DNA of 12,329 nt from the IMG/VR virus record IMGVR_UViG_2563366903_000021. One strand, given 5' to 3'. A program made the position numbers and the translations under genes. Under the pieces are notes generated by a model that saw only the letters and a list, made by a program, of their open reading frames with translations, did not search any database and was not told where the DNA came from. Positions 6,322 through 11,305 of this stretch are shown piece by piece; the stretch's first letter is position 1, and each line of letters begins with the position of its first letter. Source of the stretch: a virus. Taxonomy: Duplodnaviria > Heunggongvirae > Uroviricota > Caudoviricetes.

Positions 6322-6622
6322 GTTTTGCTGATGCGCCGTATCGTCGCAGTATTCCCGCATTAACAGAGACCTCAGCCAGACACTGGACCTCCTGCGCGAG
6401 TGTGTGGGGATAATCAAAAACGATGCACACCGGGCTTTCCACGTTTTCAGGTAACGTGAGCGTTTTCCCGCATGGCCGCCTGTCCGGTGCGGTGGTGGAA
6501 GAAACCGGATAAAACAACCATATTGTGTAAATATCAATCAAACAAGACGCTGCTGTGTGAATTCTGAAAAATCACAGCGGTCATTATGCGTCAGTTTTTA
6601 ACAGAGGACGTCAGAAAGTGAC

Positions 6623-7474
6623 ATGGCAAAGCTGGACTGGAAAAAACTGGAGCAGGCATTCCGACGCGAACATGCCAGAACTGGCATAAAACTTCAGGAC
6701 TGGTGTCGACAGAACAATATCTGCTATGGCACGGCTCGTCGGTACATAAAACTGCGCAAAAACTCCCCCAAAAATACAGAGGAAAGTGCGCAGAAAAATG
6801 CGCAAAAAAGTGCGCAAATTGACACTCAAAAAAGCGCACAAAAAAATGCGCATGGAGCTGATGACGAGTCCAGTAATGACGAGTCTTACGGCGATGATGG
6901 CAGTGATGAAAAATGCGCAAAAAACTGCGCAAATTCGGCAGAAACGAAACGCAACAGCAGATCGGGCAATCCTCACCCCGTTGCCCGGTTTAGCGACCGT
7001 AACACCCACGCCGTGAGACACCGTGGATATGCGAAGTATCTTGAGGCAGATAACCTCATGGATGATGCGTCCGATATGGTGCTGTTCGATGAACTGGTGT
7101 TCACCCGTGCCCGCGCACTTTCAGTAACAGGAACACTGAAAAAAATGTTCGCCGACCTGAAAGAGGCGGCTGACGTGGAAACCCGTGTTGCCCTGTACGA
7201 CAAAATACTCAAAGCAGAACAGGCCCTTGACCGGAATATTGCCCGTATCGAGTCAATTGAACGCTCATTGTTGACGCTGGACGTTCTGGCGGAAACAGCA
7301 CCAAAACTTCGTGCTGACCGGGAAAGAATCAACGCTGCCAGAGATAAACTCAGAGCGGAAACCGATATTCTGACCAGCCAGCGTCGGGGCGTTGTTACGC
7401 CTGTCAGTGACATCGTGTCATCGCTGCATGAAATGAGTAATTCGGGGAGACTGGATGACATTCCGGAAGAATGA
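6623..7474 (+). CDS. Terminase small subunit (N-terminal HTH-like DNA-binding region, central low-complexity linker, C-terminal coiled-coil)
   Basis: Sits directly upstream of and overlapping the large terminase. N-terminus ...GIKLQDWCRQNNICYGTARRYIKLRK looks like an HTH. Weak SD, so the exact start is uncertain. Confidence 0.7.
   Translation: MAKLDWKKLEQAFRREHARTGIKLQDWCRQNNICYGTARRYIKLRKNSPKNTEESAQKNAQKSAQIDTQKSAQKNAHGADDESSNDESYGDDGSDEKCAKNCANSAETKRNSRSGNPHPVARFSDRNTHAVRHRGYAKYLEADNLMDDASDMVLFDELVFTRARALSVTGTLKKMFADLKEAADVETRVALYDKILKAEQALDRNIARIESIERSLLTLDVLAETAPKLRADRERINAARDKLRAETDILTSQRRGVVTPVSDIVSSLHEMSNSGRLDDIPEE
6753..6931. repeat. Array of seven TGCGCA palindromic hexamers (plus one AGCGCA) in A-rich context inside terS; candidate terminase recognition (pac-like) site and/or a protein linker repeat
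   Basis: TGCGCA at 6753, 6787, 6799, 6811, 6847, 6914, 6926 and AGCGCA at 6833, mostly as (A)nTGCGCAAA with 12-bp spacing in two runs. About 0.04 copies of a given hexamer are expected by chance in 180 bp. Encodes the AQKNAQKSAQ...KCAKNCAN low-complexity segment. Confidence 0.5.
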
Positions 7475-9161
7475 ACCGCGATGTGATGAACCGTCAGAAA
7501 TGACCGGGACCGAACAACGTCTGTTCATCATGACTAAACTGAGCAATCCCTGGTGGCGGCTCAATCATCTCTACAAGATACAGAACGAAAAAGGTGAGCT
7601 GGTCACCTTCAGAATGCGACCGGCGCAGCGCCAGTTGTTCCGGAGCATGCACAATAAAAATATTATCCTGAAAGCACGCCAGCTGGGGTTTTCCACGGCC
7701 ATTGATATTTATCTTCTCGACCAGGCATTATTCATACCGCATCTCAAATGCGGGATTGTCGCTCAGGATAAACAGGCTGCCAGTGAAATTTTCCGCACCA
7801 AAATTGCTGTACCGTTTGATCATCTTCCTGACTGGCTGAGAGCCTCATTCACCATCGTTGAACGTCGTAGCGGAGCCAGCGGTGGCTATATCCTGTTTGG
7901 TCACGGCTCGAGTATCCAGGTGGCAACCTCATTCCGTTCAGGTACGGTGCAGCGCCTGCATATCTCAGAGCACGGCAAAATTTGCGCAAAATATCCGGCT
8001 AAGGCGAAAGAACTGCGAACCGGTACACTTAATGCCGTCTCTGATGAGTGCATTATTTTTGATGAATCCACTGCTGAAGGTGTGGGTGGCGATTTTTACG
8101 AGATGAGTAACCGGGCACAGGAAATCACTGCATCAGGGCTGGCGCTGACGCCACAGGATTATAAATTCCATTTTTACGCCTGGTGGCAGGATCTCAAATA
8201 CAGCGCCAGAGTGCCGGAAAGCGGACTTAAGCTGTCACGGGAAAAAACAGCGTATTTTTCTGCGGTTGAAAAAGCAATGAACATCACGCTTACCGATGAG
8301 CAGAAACACTGGTACATCTGCAAGGAAACTGAACAGCGTGAGGAAATGAAGCAGGAATTTCCCTCAACGCCACAGGAGGCGTTTCTGACGTCAGGACGAC
8401 GGGTGTTCAGTGCGGAAAGCACGCTGCAGGCAGAGTCATTCTGTTCGCCACCGCTGATTGTTTATGACATTGAACCGGTTACAGGAACGAAGACCAAAGC
8501 GCAGTCTCTGCGTGACGGGAATAAAGCCGAACAGCACCGGACGCTGATGAATTATCTGCTGGTCTGGGAGCTGCCGGATCCGGATGAAGAGTATGTATGC
8601 GGAGCGGATACCGCTGAGGGGCTGGAGCACGGAGACCGCTCATCGCTGGATATCATCAGATGCAGTAATGGTGAGCAGGTGGCTCACTGGTTTGGTCATC
8701 TCGATGCGGAGCTTTTCGCTCATCTCATTGCGCAGGTCTGCCGTATGTACAACAACGCGTTTGTGGGGCCGGAGCGTAACAATCACGGACATGCCGTTAT
8801 CCTGAAACTCAGGGAACTCTATCCGACGCGTTATATCTACAACGAACAGCACCTTGACCAGGCATATGACGACGATACGCCCCGTCTTGGCTGGCTGACA
8901 ACCCGCCAGAGTAAACCGGTCCTGACAGAGGGAATGAAAACGCTGCTGAATAACGGCCTGTCGGGGATCCGCTGGTCGGGCACATTATCAGAAATGAACA
9001 CCTACGTTTATGACGCGAAAGGCTCCATGAATGCACAGGAAGGCTGTTTTGATGATCAGCTTATGAGCTACATGATTGCCCAGGAGATGCGTGCCAGAAT
9101 GCCGGTGAGGGTAAAACAGAAAACGGATAAACGCAGAACCACACACTGGATGGCTCACTGA
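7455..9161 (+). CDS. Terminase large subunit (ATPase plus nuclease)
   Basis: 568 aa. Terminase-type deviant Walker A KARQLGFST (compare T4 gp17 SRQLGKT) and Walker B-like IIFDE. Gene order terS-terL-portal. Start overlaps the terS 3' end by 20 nt (GGGGAGA SD); in-frame alternative starts at 7500 and further downstream are possible. Confidence 0.85.
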   Translation: MTFRKNEPRCDEPSEMTGTEQRLFIMTKLSNPWWRLNHLYKIQNEKGELVTFRMRPAQRQLFRSMHNKNIILKARQLGFSTAIDIYLLDQALFIPHLKCGIVAQDKQAASEIFRTKIAVPFDHLPDWLRASFTIVERRSGASGGYILFGHGSSIQVATSFRSGTVQRLHISEHGKICAKYPAKAKELRTGTLNAVSDECIIFDESTAEGVGGDFYEMSNRAQEITASGLALTPQDYKFHFYAWWQDLKYSARVPESGLKLSREKTAYFSAVEKAMNITLTDEQKHWYICKETEQREEMKQEFPSTPQEAFLTSGRRVFSAESTLQAESFCSPPLIVYDIEPVTGTKTKAQSLRDGNKAEQHRTLMNYLLVWELPDPDEEYVCGADTAEGLEHGDRSSLDIIRCSNGEQVAHWFGHLDAELFAHLIAQVCRMYNNAFVGPERNNHGHAVILKLRELYPTRYIYNEQHLDQAYDDDTPRLGWLTTRQSKPVLTEGMKTLLNNGLSGIRWSGTLSEMNTYVYDAKGSMNAQEGCFDDQLMSYMIAQEMRARMPVRVKQKTDKRRTTHWMAH

Positions 9162-11305
9162 TGAAAAATGAAACTAATACCATGGCGACGAAAAACGACA
9201 ACGGAGCCACGCCGCGTTTTTCTCAGCGCCAGTTACAGGCGCTTTGTTCTGATATTGACAGTCAGCCTAAATGGCGCGATGCCGCAAACAAGGCCTGTGC
9301 GTATTACGATGGTGACCAGTTGCCACCGGAAGTTCTCCAGGTGTTGAAAGATCGCGGTCAGCCGATGACCATCCATAACCTCATCGCGCCTACCGTTGAT
9401 GGTGTTCTGGGTATGGAGGCCAAAACGCGGACTGATCTGTTGGTGATATCAGATGATCCTGATGATGAAACAGAAAAACTGGCTGAAGCTATTAATGCTG
9501 AATTTGCCGATGCTTGCCGCCTTGGAAATATGAATAAAGCCCGTTCTGATGCCTATGCGGAACAAATCAAAGCGGGGCTCAGCTGGGTGGAGGTCAGACG
9601 GAACAGCGATCCGTTCGGGCCTGAGTTTAAGGTGTCTACTGTCAGCCGGAATGAAGTGTTCTGGGACTGGCTCAGCCGGGAGGCTGATTTAAGTGACTGC
9701 CGCTGGCTGATGCGCCGCCGCTGGATGGATACCGATGAGGCAAAAGCCACATTTCCGGGAATGGCTCAGGTTATCGATTATGCCATTGATGACTGGCGTG
9801 GTTTTGTCGATACCACGGTTACTGAAGGCCAGCCCAGTCCGTTGATGAGTGCATGGGAAGAGTATCAGTCATGGGATCGACAGCAGAACGAATGGCTTCA
9901 GCGTGAACGCCGTCGTGTGCTGCTTCAGGTGGTTTATTACCGTACATTCGAGCGTCTTCCGGTGATTGAACTCAGTAATGGACGGGTGGTGGCCTTTGAT
10001 AAAAATAATCTGATGCATGCGGTGGCTGTGGCATCCGGGCGGGTGCAGGTGAGAGTCGGGCGGGTAAGTCGTATTCGTGAAGCCTGGTTTGTGGGACCGC
10101 ACTTTATTGTGGATCGCCCCTGTAGTGCGCCGCAGGGGATGTTCCCGCTGGTTCCCTTCTGGGGATACCGGAAGGATAAAACCGGGGAGCCTTACGGGCT
10201 GATTTCCCGGGCCATTCCGGCACAGGATGAGGTGAATTTTCGTCGTATAAAACTGACGTGGTTGCTTCAGGCCAAACGCGTGATTATGGACGAGGATGCC
10301 ACCCAGTTGTCAGACAACGAGCTGATGGAGCAGATCGAGCGTCCGGATGGCATTATTAAACTGAATCCGGCCCGAAAAAATCAGAAAAGCGTTGCTGATG
10401 TTTTCCGGGTTGAACAGGATTTTCAGGTTGCCAGCCAGCAGTTTCAGGTCATGCAGGAGTCGGAAAAACTTATCCAGGACACGATGGGGGTTTATTCCGC
10501 ATTTCTCGGGCAGGATTCAAATGCATCGTCCGGTGTGGCGATCAGCAACCTGGTGGAGCAGGGAGCCACAACCCTTGCCGAAATCAACGATAACTACCAG
10601 TTTGCCTGCCAGCAGGTGGGAAGGCTGTTGCTCGCTTATCTTCTTGATGACCTGAAAAAGCGGCGCAATCATGCGGTGGTGATTAATCGCGATGATCGTC
10701 AGCGTCGCCAGACCATTGTCCTCAATGCTGAAGGTGATAATGGTGAACTGACCAATGATATTTCAAGGTTAAATACACATATTGCGCTGGCTCCTGTTCA
10801 GCAGACACCGGCGTTTAAGGCACAGCTTGCACAGAGAATGTCAGAGGTTATTCAGGGGCTGCCACCTCAGGTGCAGGCCGTCGTGCTCGACCTGTGGGTT
10901 AACCTTCTGGATGTGCCGCAGAAACAGGAATTTGTCGAACGTATTCGTGCGGCGCTGGGGACGCCAAAATCACCGGATGAGATGACTCCGGAAGAGCAGG
11001 AAGCGGCAGCACAACAGCAGGCGCTGGAGCAACAGCAGGCAGAACTTCAGATGCGCGAAATGACAGGCCGGGTGGCTAAACTGGAAGCAGAAGCTGCCAG
11101 GGCACGCGCGGCTGCGCAACGGGATAATGCTGGCGCACAACGGGATGTCGCCGCGGCACAGGGACAGCGTTATGTGGATGCGCTTAACCAGGCACATACG
11201 GCAGAAATCATTACCGGCATACAGAATATGGAACAGGAGCAGGAAGTTCTTCAGCAACAGATGCTGCATACACTACAACAGCGGATGCATGAAATGCCGC
11301 TCTGA
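9161..11305 (+). CDS. Portal protein
   Basis: 714-aa ORF immediately after terL with an ATGA stop/start overlap (9159-9163). Size, position and a Gln/Ala-rich coiled-coil C-terminus are typical of portal proteins. Confidence 0.75.
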   Translation: MKNETNTMATKNDNGATPRFSQRQLQALCSDIDSQPKWRDAANKACAYYDGDQLPPEVLQVLKDRGQPMTIHNLIAPTVDGVLGMEAKTRTDLLVISDDPDDETEKLAEAINAEFADACRLGNMNKARSDAYAEQIKAGLSWVEVRRNSDPFGPEFKVSTVSRNEVFWDWLSREADLSDCRWLMRRRWMDTDEAKATFPGMAQVIDYAIDDWRGFVDTTVTEGQPSPLMSAWEEYQSWDRQQNEWLQRERRRVLLQVVYYRTFERLPVIELSNGRVVAFDKNNLMHAVAVASGRVQVRVGRVSRIREAWFVGPHFIVDRPCSAPQGMFPLVPFWGYRKDKTGEPYGLISRAIPAQDEVNFRRIKLTWLLQAKRVIMDEDATQLSDNELMEQIERPDGIIKLNPARKNQKSVADVFRVEQDFQVASQQFQVMQESEKLIQDTMGVYSAFLGQDSNASSGVAISNLVEQGATTLAEINDNYQFACQQVGRLLLAYLLDDLKKRRNHAVVINRDDRQRRQTIVLNAEGDNGELTNDISRLNTHIALAPVQQTPAFKAQLAQRMSEVIQGLPPQVQAVVLDLWVNLLDVPQKQEFVERIRAALGTPKSPDEMTPEEQEAAAQQQALEQQQAELQMREMTGRVAKLEAEAARARAAAQRDNAGAQRDVAAAQGQRYVDALNQAHTAEIITGIQNMEQEQEVLQQQMLHTLQQRMHEMPL

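Follow-up and report, generated by a model that had tools for sequence, protein, structure and literature searches.

The window, which is the whole 12,329-nt stretch of DNA from a Shiga-toxin-type E. coli phage analysed here, carries the small terminase gene terS, the large terminase gene terL, and a P22-like portal gene (Table 1). The terS and terL DNA is about 91% identical to that of the 933W-group phages. TerL is annotated as 'terminase, large subunit (T4-like headful)' in the phage PhiR12_3 (61,979 bp; host ECOR13), which is 99.9% identical to the window. The terS of the window is present in 22-26 complete E. coli genomes. A Pfam search of TerS and TerL identified no family, Phage_Nu1 included.

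The AlphaFold2 model of TerS has three N-terminal helices (residues 6-20, 24-30, and 35-41; pLDDT 77-92). They are followed by a linker with pLDDT below 50 at residues 46-116, 118-124, and 126-131. The linker is the least conserved part among the homologues, and the protein constraint is weak in this predicted disordered segment, which hosts the repeat array described below. No PDB entry matched the N-domain profile significantly in a sequence search, and the best match was the HTH of the IstA transposase (E 0.14). The Foldseek search with the whole TerS model returned coiled-coil look-alikes only. With the N-domain alone, the best matches were nearly all HTH DNA-binding domains, although the E values above 0.1 make this result qualitative only.

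Table 1. Positions of the genes, protein segments, and repeat clusters at the terS locus
Feature	Positions	Strand, place or codon phase	Basis or remark
terS, small terminase subunit, 283 aa	6623-7474	+	phrog_370 'terminase small subunit', E 7e-118
TerS N-terminal three-helix HTH, residues 1-45, presumed hexamer reader	6623-6757	+	AlphaFold2, hhalign
HTH third helix, codons 35-41 (YGTARRY)	6725-6745	+	AlphaFold2; residues 39-41 covary with the hexamer
Predicted disordered linker, residues 46-131, hosting the array	6758-7015	+	AlphaFold2 pLDDT
TGCGCA copy 1, outlier	6753-6758	phase 2 (L-R-K)	Motif scan and codon phasing
Left cluster, five copies: TGCGCA starting at 6787, 6799, 6811, and 6847, and AGCGCA at 6833-6838	6787-6852	TGCGCA phase 3 (S/N-A-Q/H); AGCGCA phase 1 (S-A-Q)	Motif scan, AGCGCA read from the sequence; A-rich spacers
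Hexamer-free 61-nt spacer between the clusters	6853-6913		Sequence
Right cluster, TGCGCA starting at 6914 and 6926	6914-6931	phase 1 (C-A)	Motif scan
terL, large terminase, presumed nuclease/motor recruited by TerS	7455-9161	+	phrog_2 'terminase large subunit', E 5e-52
P22-like portal gene	9161-11305	after terL	PF16510, E 1.5e-129

The motif scan showed that 7 of the 12 exact TGCGCA hexamers of the window lie in one array within terS (positions 6753-6931, nt 131-309 of the gene). Together with the single AGCGCA, this is exactly the count given in the original prediction, and the family match of the gene agrees with its placement inside a small-terminase gene. The spacings between the TGCGCA copies are 12, 12, 22, 14, and 12 nt, with one 67-nt step from the start at 6847 to the start at 6914, which fits the description of a mostly 12-bp spacing. 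The AGCGCA copy sits 2 nt off register. TRF reported a period of 12 at 6783-6818 and 6909-6933, and also a period of 24. The 28-mers at 6793-6820 and 6908-6935 are 96% identical; despite this, the right cluster is read in another frame than the left cluster. Neither the Dam site GATC nor CCWGG is found in 6700-6960. Three other ORFs overlapping the array had been regarded as spurious. All of them exist, and no family match was found for two (6591-6932 and 6611-7021, both on the minus strand); the third, in the +1 frame (6786-7016, plus strand), matches phrog_30708.

The background rate of TGCGCA is 5 copies in the 11,477 nt outside terS. This gives an expectation of 0.08 copies per 179 nt and a Poisson P of ~3e-12, a figure weaker than the resampling and genome-wide tests, because copies made by tandem duplication are not independent events. 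In the codon resampling, the TerS protein was kept fixed and synonymous codons were drawn from the phage's own usage. The resampled terS of the window had a mean of 1.07 TGCGCA and a maximum of 6, and 0/20,000 trials reached 7; the array is thus beyond chance, as had been claimed. The other TGCGCA/TGCGAA lineages behaved similarly: 12 of the 14 gave 0/5000 trials at the observed count, and the remaining two (L007 and L095) gave 2/5000 and 32/5000. The proven P1 pac site gave 8/5000 trials at its observed count. In the two GATCA-class lineages, 297/5000 and 2176/5000 trials reached the observed count, since the test is weak for this class, in which Asp-His codons readily make GATCA. The PhiR12_3 genome contains 32 TGCGCA hexamers; seven of them fall in one 200-nt stretch, and every other stretch has two or fewer. 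The region at about 6750-6950 of the window corresponds to 30,740-30,940 of PhiR12_3. The hexamer cluster is therefore unique in the phage genome.

Codon and dipeptide usage was also analysed. Four of the five Gln codons in or beside the copies are CAA, versus 89% CAG in the phage overall. In the 85 ARR-class linkers, Cys-Ala accounts for 66 of the 93 Cys-X dipeptides (six commonest types). The array is selected as DNA, not as protein. It does encode the low-complexity peptide SAQKNAQKSAQ, as noticed earlier; the direction of cause, however, has to be reversed, and the peptide appears to follow from the DNA motif.

A linker without any DNA function was considered, in which slippage produced a low-complexity (S/N-A-Q-K)n segment and the motif-like codons are recent duplicates. 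Such an origin would fit the tandem 12-nt (4-codon) periodicity, the array copy numbers that differ between close relatives by multiples of 3 nt, and the predicted disorder of the segment. However, a coding tandem repeat keeps to one frame and its motif is explained by the peptide, whereas the single terS ORF holds the hexamer in codon phases 1, 2, and 3, encoding S-A-Q and C-A in phase 1, L-R-K in phase 2, and S-A-Q-type peptides in phase 3. The codon resampling failed to reproduce the array here and in most of the other lineages. Moreover, the motif is retained while the spacers and peptides differ, once on the other strand. The linker cysteines are explained by TGC-GCA or TGC-GAA, including those in the Pasteurella and L103/L107 peptides. 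Slippage alone is very unlikely to account for the array.

About 200 related loci were compared. They share a module, consisting of the TerS N-terminal three-helix HTH and, directly after it, 3-9 short motifs in an array. The distinct TGCGCA arrays number 83, with 3-9 copies (median 7) and spacings mostly of 9, 12, 14, 10, and 7 nt. They were found in Escherichia, Salmonella-type, Aeromonas, Vibrio, and Dickeya-type prophages, with a TerS identity of about 40%. The original prediction had proposed to check whether the DNA motif is kept when the protein repeat varies. The homologues do keep the hexamer, in all three codon phases and with varied spacers, and TGCGCA arrays also precede unrelated Terminase_2-type C-domains. 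In loci where the N-domain is swapped for an unrelated HTH, the TGCGCA array is absent, and a CCGTCC/GGACGG, CCGACC/GGTCGG, GGTACG, or GGGGCA array is found instead. The truncated terS genes of loci L129 and L169 were considered as A-run frameshifts; this was rejected, as the identity of L129 extends through the array and breaks off abruptly after it.

The motif also covaries with helix 3 of the N-domain. Among 53 distinct N-domains, ARR(Y/H) occurs with TGCGCA (38/38), AKRY with TGCGAA (10/10, once on the opposite strand), and ART(R/Q) with GATCA, the common 933W type (5/5); the total of 53/53 overstates the number of independent events, as the sequences share phylogeny. On the N-domain tree, AKRY is found in at least 4 places and ART in 2. 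The N-domains of L102 (TGCGCA array) and L103 (TGCGAA array) differ at only 5 of 44 residues, including R39K. In Pectobacterium, an AKRY domain is followed by five TTCGCA, which is TGCGAA on the other strand and encodes a quite different peptide. The 933W-type relatives have 4-5 YGATCA at 12-nt spacing. These phages, which are predicted GATCA readers, retain two TGCGCA downstream, which would be remnants of a recent recombination unless the right-hand copies serve some other purpose. In addition, the conserved peptide ENCANSAETKR is encoded by the right-most copy.

Two further explanations bear on these comparisons. The palindromes and A-runs might form hairpins in the terS mRNA, or minus-strand intrinsic terminators against antisense transcription. 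There are six terminator-like minus-strand sites in 6763-6931 compared with 1.5 expected from shuffles, but the stems are only 6-8 bp and the loops all-U. The A-rich spacers or the palindrome are missing in many members, such as those with GC-rich Aeromonas spacers or TGCGAA direct repeats, and the covariation with the TerS helix would be left unexplained. This role is extremely improbable. The hexamers might also be the target of a different protein from the phage or the host (a regulator, a nucleoid protein, or a restriction/modification enzyme, for example), with only an indirect link to TerS. TGCGCA is a perfect type II palindrome, typical of dimeric regulators and restriction sites; the TGCGAA and GGTACG arrays, however, are non-palindromic, and the cluster occurs only at terS in the genome. 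The motif shifts with single residues of the TerS helix and with the N-domain swaps, in hosts from Pasteurella to Aeromonas; such tracking of TerS would not occur with a host factor. The regulator alternative offered in the original prediction is thus quite unlikely, because the motif covaries with TerS itself.

The closest known system is the pac site of phage P1 and its protein PacA. The alignment of the TerS N-domain profile with PacA residues 1-60 gave an hhalign probability of 93.3% (E 2.7e-7, 41 columns), and BLASTP of TerS against PacA gave an E of 7e-4. There are also weak reciprocal PHROG matches, of the window TerS to phrog_1711 (the PacA family, 1.6e-4) and of PacA to phrog_370 (1.9e-4). 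In the AF234172 annotation, P1 pac consists of TGATCA/G hexamers in two clusters, with an IHF site and the mapped cleavage sites between them; it is described as having 'seven hexanucleotide repeats' (PMC11260489). The P1 hexamers lie at nt 194-352 of pacA, directly after the HTH, and the array of the window occupies a similar part of terS. Both sites contain two clusters, separated by a copy-free stretch, with about seven hexamers of the TGNNCA type in all. The copies are arranged as 1+5+2 with a gap of 61 nt in the window, and as 4+3 with about 90 nt between the clusters in P1. Phage P1 is also a headful packager and a generalized transducer, similar to the reports for 933W. The array is most likely a relative of P1 pac that uses a different six-base word.

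There are also clear differences from P1. The window hexamer TGCGCA has no GATC, in contrast to the TGATCA/G of P1, so Dam methylation cannot control it in the way known for P1 (Sternberg and Coulby 1990, as cited in PMC11260489). The 933W-type relatives, with their YGATCA, are nearer to P1 in motif than the window is. A consensus scan for IHF sites (WATCAANNNNTTR, at most 1 mismatch) found none between 4041 and 7653. TerS outside its N-domain is unrelated to PacA, and so is the large subunit to PacB; BLASTP of the window TerL against PacB gave an E of 3.4, and they share membership only in the very broad phrog_2. Considering the missing IHF consensus and Dam site and the different TerL, the P1 analogy is limited to the TerS N-domain and the array. 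PacA carries a TARRY helix, yet its site is TGATCA, and its domain is only 23% identical. Residues 39-41 are therefore not the entire code, and a one-residue rule of the form 'ARRY = TGCGCA' was ruled out. The covariation between motif and helix 3 is claimed within the closer family only.

Other packaging systems are less similar. The R elements of lambda cosB are several short copies near the small-terminase gene, read by the N-terminal HTH of gpNu1, and gpNu1 bound at cosB positions the large subunit to cut nearby. The R elements lie upstream of Nu1 in a phage with cos ends, whereas the repeats of the window are inside the ORF. In P22 and Sf6, which are headful podoviruses, the small-terminase gene contains pac, and the window also has a P22-like portal. 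However, the pac of P22 is not a hexamer array but one asymmetric element of about 22 bp, and the Sf6/Gally-type TerS belongs to another protein family. In the prophage Gally, the coverage peak is inside an Sf6-type terS (PMC9928086). Gally (E. coli LF82) was rejected as a mapped family member, as its TerS is a 140-aa Sf6-type protein unrelated to that of the window. The SPP1/SF6 pac (pacL, pacC, and pacR) overlaps the start of the small-terminase gene and has direct repeats, and the G1P protein displays its N-terminal HTH on an oligomeric ring (PMC4737164). In this best-studied HTH-type TerS, the isolated domain of SF6 shows hardly any sequence preference when it binds pac DNA, and its binding is not accounted for by the box repeats (PMC4737164). 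Repeats near terS are thus not automatically binding sites. The SPP1/SF6 TerS has no sequence relationship to the TerS of the window, whose motif-helix covariation argues for base-specific reading. P22, SPP1, and Sf6, the comparison phages named in the original prediction, are less apt than P1, which was absent from it.

The packaging mode of the relatives is partly described. For 933W, the ends could not be sequenced, a terminal redundancy was inferred as probable, and generalized transduction was found (PMC3752737). The 933W terminase also serves as a headful reference (PMC6029569). The GenBank note of vB_EcoP_phi296 ('circularly permutated genome; cohesive ends joined') was set aside as an assembly remark, not an end mapping.

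Taken together, the TGCGCA array is probably the recognition part of the phage's pac site, with a P1-like build. The support for this part of the original prediction comes from comparison, namely the motif conservation, the helix 3 covariation, and the homology to PacA. TerS carries its small N-terminal HTH on a long flexible linker, and the linker DNA carries the 7-8 hexamer copies that the domain would read. Several HTH domains of one TerS oligomer might bind neighbouring copies 9-14 nt apart. The TerS-bound array would mark the phage concatemers and bring TerL into place to make its first cut within the 61-nt gap or close to it; by analogy with P1, the spacer is a candidate first-cleavage region. 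Headful packaging would then proceed rightward into terL and the portal gene. We infer in this way the binding of TerS, its stoichiometry, the place and direction of cleavage, and the headful mode of this phage.

TerS might instead bind the hexamers to autoregulate terS and terL, as an operator or a roadblock, and not to initiate packaging. The covariation and the shared module tie the N-domain to the motif but do not tell what the binding achieves, and terS, whose first third holds the array, is the first late packaging gene. A sigma-70-like match is present in the array (6819-6847), but at chance level (1 found, 1.0 expected). In P1 PacA/pac, the only homologous system that has been characterised, the site is where packaging cleavage occurs and the cuts are mapped, and TerS proteins are generally defined by pac or cos recognition. 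One operator would also be enough for regulation, while 5-9 sites in two clusters resemble pac and cosB. A purely regulatory role is unlikely, and the two roles are not mutually exclusive.

The N-domain and its array may also form a portable and re-programmable packaging 'address label', whose word is set by one or two helix 3 residues; we propose this only tentatively. In such a code, R39 would correspond to TGCGCA, K39 to TGCGAA, and T40 with R/Q41 to GATCA, and the domain swaps would correspond to CCGTCC, CCGACC, GGTACG, and GGGGCA. The phage of the window would belong to a Dam-independent specificity class of the P1-type pac. The classes might diversify so that the many lambdoid prophages resident in one E. 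coli cell, and their satellites, avoid packaging each other's DNA.

A full-text search of the literature outside the subscription journals found no description of where packaging starts in the 933W/Stx-phage group, and this site appears to be previously undescribed. Shiga toxin genes are disseminated by the phages of this group, of which at least 933W carries out generalized transduction. A pac function of the array would provide a coordinate for predicting lateral and generalized transduction from these prophages, and a 200-bp cassette with which packageable plasmids or phage-like particles could be made. It would also offer natural matched protein/DNA variants with which to study how weak HTH domains arranged in a ring can recognise pac specifically, given that the SPP1/SF6 domain seems to lack such specificity (PMC4737164), and Dam-controllable (GATCA) and Dam-independent (TGCGCA) versions of one machine. 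If the address-label reading is true, the family would carry a readable code, which might be helpful to predict and engineer the specificity of packaging and transduction.

Sequence similarity identifies the window as the late region of a 933W/Stx-type, Sepvirinae-like lambdoid phage. Over the stretch compared, its identity to the complete Escherichia phage PhiR12_3 is 99.9%; in the conserved parts, many Stx-converting phages reach about 91%. Lysis genes are followed by terS, terL, and a P22-like portal gene (Table). The dense TGCGCA cluster that the original prediction placed inside the small-terminase gene was borne out: seven TGCGCA and one AGCGCA occupy nt 131-309 of terS. The whole window contains 12 TGCGCA; at the rate outside terS, 0.08 copies would be expected in the array stretch. 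The array has 12- and 24-nt periods (TRF), its 28-mers 6793-6820 and 6908-6935 share 96% identity, and its layout is five copies, a 61-nt gap, and two copies. The PhiR12_3 genome (61,979 bp) has 32 TGCGCA, and exceeds two copies per 200 nt at the array only.

Table. Coordinates of the array and its neighbouring features in the window
Feature	Position	Codon phase	Peptide
terS	6623-7474
TGCGCA	6753 (start)	2	Leu-Arg-Lys
TGCGCA, four copies	6787, 6799, 6811, 6847 (starts)	3	Ser/Asn-Ala-Gln/His
AGCGCA	6833-6838	1	Ser-Ala
TGCGCA, two copies	6914, 6926 (starts)	1	Cys-Ala
Gap between clusters	6853-6913
Terminator-like hairpins, minus strand	6763-6931
+1-frame ORF	6786-7016
terL	7455-9161
P22-like portal gene	9161-11305

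The codon phase of the copies is the decisive detail for distinguishing a DNA word from a protein repeat. The hexamer occurs in three codon phases; therefore, one DNA word is spelled through three peptides in one gene. When the TerS protein was fixed and synonymous codons were redrawn according to the phage's own usage, 1.07 copies were expected, and seven were reached in 0 of 20,000 trials. The same resampling of 14 other TGCGCA/TGCGAA lineages gave 0/5000 trials in 12 of them, 2/5000 in L007, and 32/5000 in L095. Of the five Gln codons in or beside the array copies, four are CAA; phage-wide, Gln is CAG in 89%. AlphaFold2 predicted disorder (pLDDT below 50) for residues 46-131, the segment in which the array wholly lies; on its two sides are an N-domain of three confidently modelled helices (6-20, 24-30, and 35-41) and a long helical hairpin. 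In this model, the linker protein seems free to carry whatever the array DNA needs. The array also contains A6-A7 runs. The +1-frame ORF, previously called spurious, matches positions 41-96 of phrog_30708 (E 1.3e-7), and the N-terminus of TerS aligns with positions 1-79 of this 115-position family. The family therefore seems to be the N-domain plus a +1-frame tail, which points to either frameshifted or mis-sequenced terS genes or a real short isoform.

About 200 loci were compared, from species genomes, IMG/VR, GenBank phages, and contigs coding for database homologues. The TGCGCA copy number was 3-9 (median 7; 83 distinct arrays). Aeromonas prophages, whose TerS is ~40% identical to that of the window, contain 5-8 TGCGCA at the same terS position, with spacings of 9, 10, and 14 nt, GC-rich spacers, and all three codon phases. 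Homologues were thus found to keep the DNA motif while the protein varies, a check proposed with the original prediction. The N-domain and array also precede C-terminal domains of quite another kind: in phage PHB10 the domain is of the Terminase_2 type, and a further example is the 364-aa protein of vB_EcoS-885R8. These comparisons indicate that the motif outlasts its sequence context.

Helix 3 of the N-domain and the array motif covary. Across 53 distinct N-domains, ..[TS]ARR[YH].. was found with TGCGCA (38/38), ..[TS]AKRY.. with TGCGAA (10/10), and ..TART[RQ].. with GATCA (5/5), these being counts of sequences rather than of independent events. On the N-domain tree, AKRY lies at no fewer than four separate places; ART lies at two, one being the 933W type of E. 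coli and the other a lineage from Salmonella. Between loci L102 and L103, 5 of the 44 N-domain residues are substituted (R39K among them), and their arrays are TGCGCA and TGCGAA, respectively. In Pectobacterium, an AKRY domain is followed by five TTCGCA, the TGCGAA word on the opposite strand; this array codes for NSQIRSSQKSDSQIR, a peptide with no resemblance to the Cys-Glu/Ala-Asn peptides that other AKRY arrays encode. Ala-Gln and Cys-Ala dominate the linker dipeptides of the ARR class, and Asp-His those of the ART class; Cys-Glu (TGC-GAA) was found in same-strand AKRY arrays. The linker peptides thus appear to follow the array DNA, and frame, codon, and strand evidence reject a pure protein repeat. 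The covariation carries the argument for a pac site; the repeats alone are no proof. Binding by a non-TerS factor, such as the host or phage regulator considered originally, leaves the tracking of the TerS domain across hosts unexplained. RNA hairpins or minus-strand terminators might also be proposed, as six intrinsic-terminator-like hairpins were found against 1.5 expected from shuffles; however, this reading does not extend to non-palindromic motifs or GC-rich spacers. These hairpins consist of neighbouring palindromic copies with T-runs between, and are probably a by-product of the array. TerS may also regulate its own expression through the array, although this is less likely; such a function would not conflict with a pac role.

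Replacement of the N-domain is accompanied by replacement of the array. Salmonella homologues in which the C-terminal two-thirds of TerS is retained and the HTH domain is an unrelated one lack TGCGCA arrays; they carry instead CCGTCC then inverted GGACGG, or GGTACGAAA then inverted GTACC. In further members of these domain types, the corresponding position is occupied by an array of CCGACC/GGTCGG, GGTACGCA, GGGGCAAAA, or GGTTCGCA. The HTH-then-array pattern is much wider than the window's family. In unrelated-HTH terS genes (L182:1500-1980, L183:1500-1980, and L188-L209), the arrays lie directly after the HTH, typically as 2-3 direct then 2-4 inverted copies with A-rich spacers; the motifs are CCGTCC/GGACGG, CCGACC/GGTCGG, GGTACG(A/C)A/GTACC, GGGGCAAAA/TGCCCC, and GGTTCGCA.

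Where the window has TGCGCA, 933W, TL-2011c, and other common Stx phages have 4-5 YGATCA at exact 12-nt spacing, with two further TGCGCA beyond them. Four YGATCA copies lie at L004:1765-1812 (TL-2011c terS nt 142-183), and also in L003 and L180; L028 has five, and protein P0015 up to seven. The 3' part of the 933W-type terS is nearly identical to that of the window, and the two TGCGCA retained despite a GATCA-type domain may reflect recent recombination. At the equivalent site of Salmonella lineages that have an ARTQ helix or a swapped N-domain, the hexamer has degenerated to TGCGAA, TGCACA, or TGCGTA. The window terS is itself a mosaic: its 5' end resembles phage GER2 (L002; alignment columns 1-200), and near-identity to PhiR5_2 (L003), a phage with a GATCA-type N-domain, begins at about column 296. 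The junction falls in the array/spacer; therefore, the repeats may double as recombination joints between modules. The truncated, 78-codon terS at L129:1201-1530 is identical to its full-length relative in L152 through the whole array and diverges abruptly ~210 nt into the gene, which indicates a rearrangement breakpoint at the array's 3' edge.

The N-domain is evidently homologous to the N-terminus of P1 PacA (profile-sequence comparison probability 93.3%, E 2.7e-7; BLASTP E 7e-4; weak reciprocal PHROG matches). The P1 pac consists of seven hexanucleotide repeats (PMC11260489), and its cleavage is described there, with reference to the paper's reference 37, as under adenine methylation control. 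In the P1 record AF234172, pac is annotated within pacA (nt 194-352), just after the HTH. Four TGATCA come first, followed by the IHF site and the cleavage positions, which are mapped on each strand, and then by TGATCG and two TGATCA. The window array shares the two-cluster layout and the in-gene place after the HTH. However, it has no GATC or Dcm site (6700-6960), so Dam control cannot operate, and a consensus scan found no IHF consensus nearby. The rest of TerS is unrelated to PacA, and the whole TerL to PacB. Only the N-domain and array module is common to the two phages, which fits a mobile cassette. PacA has a TARRY helix, yet its word is TGATCA; therefore, the word is not set by residues 39-41 alone. 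Between the two TGATCA clusters of pacA, in the stretch from the cleavage region's right edge to the right cluster, lie one TGCGAA and one AGCGCA (L099:1405-1410 and 1422-1427). Together with the TARRY helix, which goes with TGCGCA elsewhere, these could be coincidental or could suggest a target for the PacA HTH different from the Dam hexamers.

The array most likely provides the recognition sequences of a P1-like pac site. Known TerS rings have 8-12 subunits, to which the 5-9 sites at 9-14 nt may be matched. HTH domains of the oligomer, on flexible linker tethers, would bind neighbouring hexamers; TerL would thereby be placed so that its initial cut falls within or close to the gap, and headful packaging would then run rightward. 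The HTH of SF6/SPP1, taken in isolation, has almost no sequence preference when it binds pac DNA (PMC4737164), which counts against reading repeats by themselves as binding sites. The 933W phage is reported as a generalized transducer, probably with terminal redundancy (PMC3752737), and its terminase is used as a headful reference (PMC6029569). In the full-text literature available without subscription, no description was found of a 933W-type pac site or of terminase genes carrying TGCGCA arrays. The window array, which consists of hexamers within the gene but has another word and neither Dam nor IHF features, would thus be a new form of the P1-type pac site, and matched HTH/array cassettes in small-terminase genes form a wider, apparently undescribed pattern.

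Like P1 pac, the YGATCA arrays have a Dam site in every copy. The 933W/Stx phages typically encode their own adenine methyltransferase, as does the TGCGCA-type PhiR12_3 (2167-2793). Some complete E. coli genomes have as many as three terS loci from this family, and plasmids account for 4 of the 444 places. Dam control of Stx-phage packaging looks testable, and co-resident prophages of different hexamer classes would provide a natural test of packaging cross-talk.
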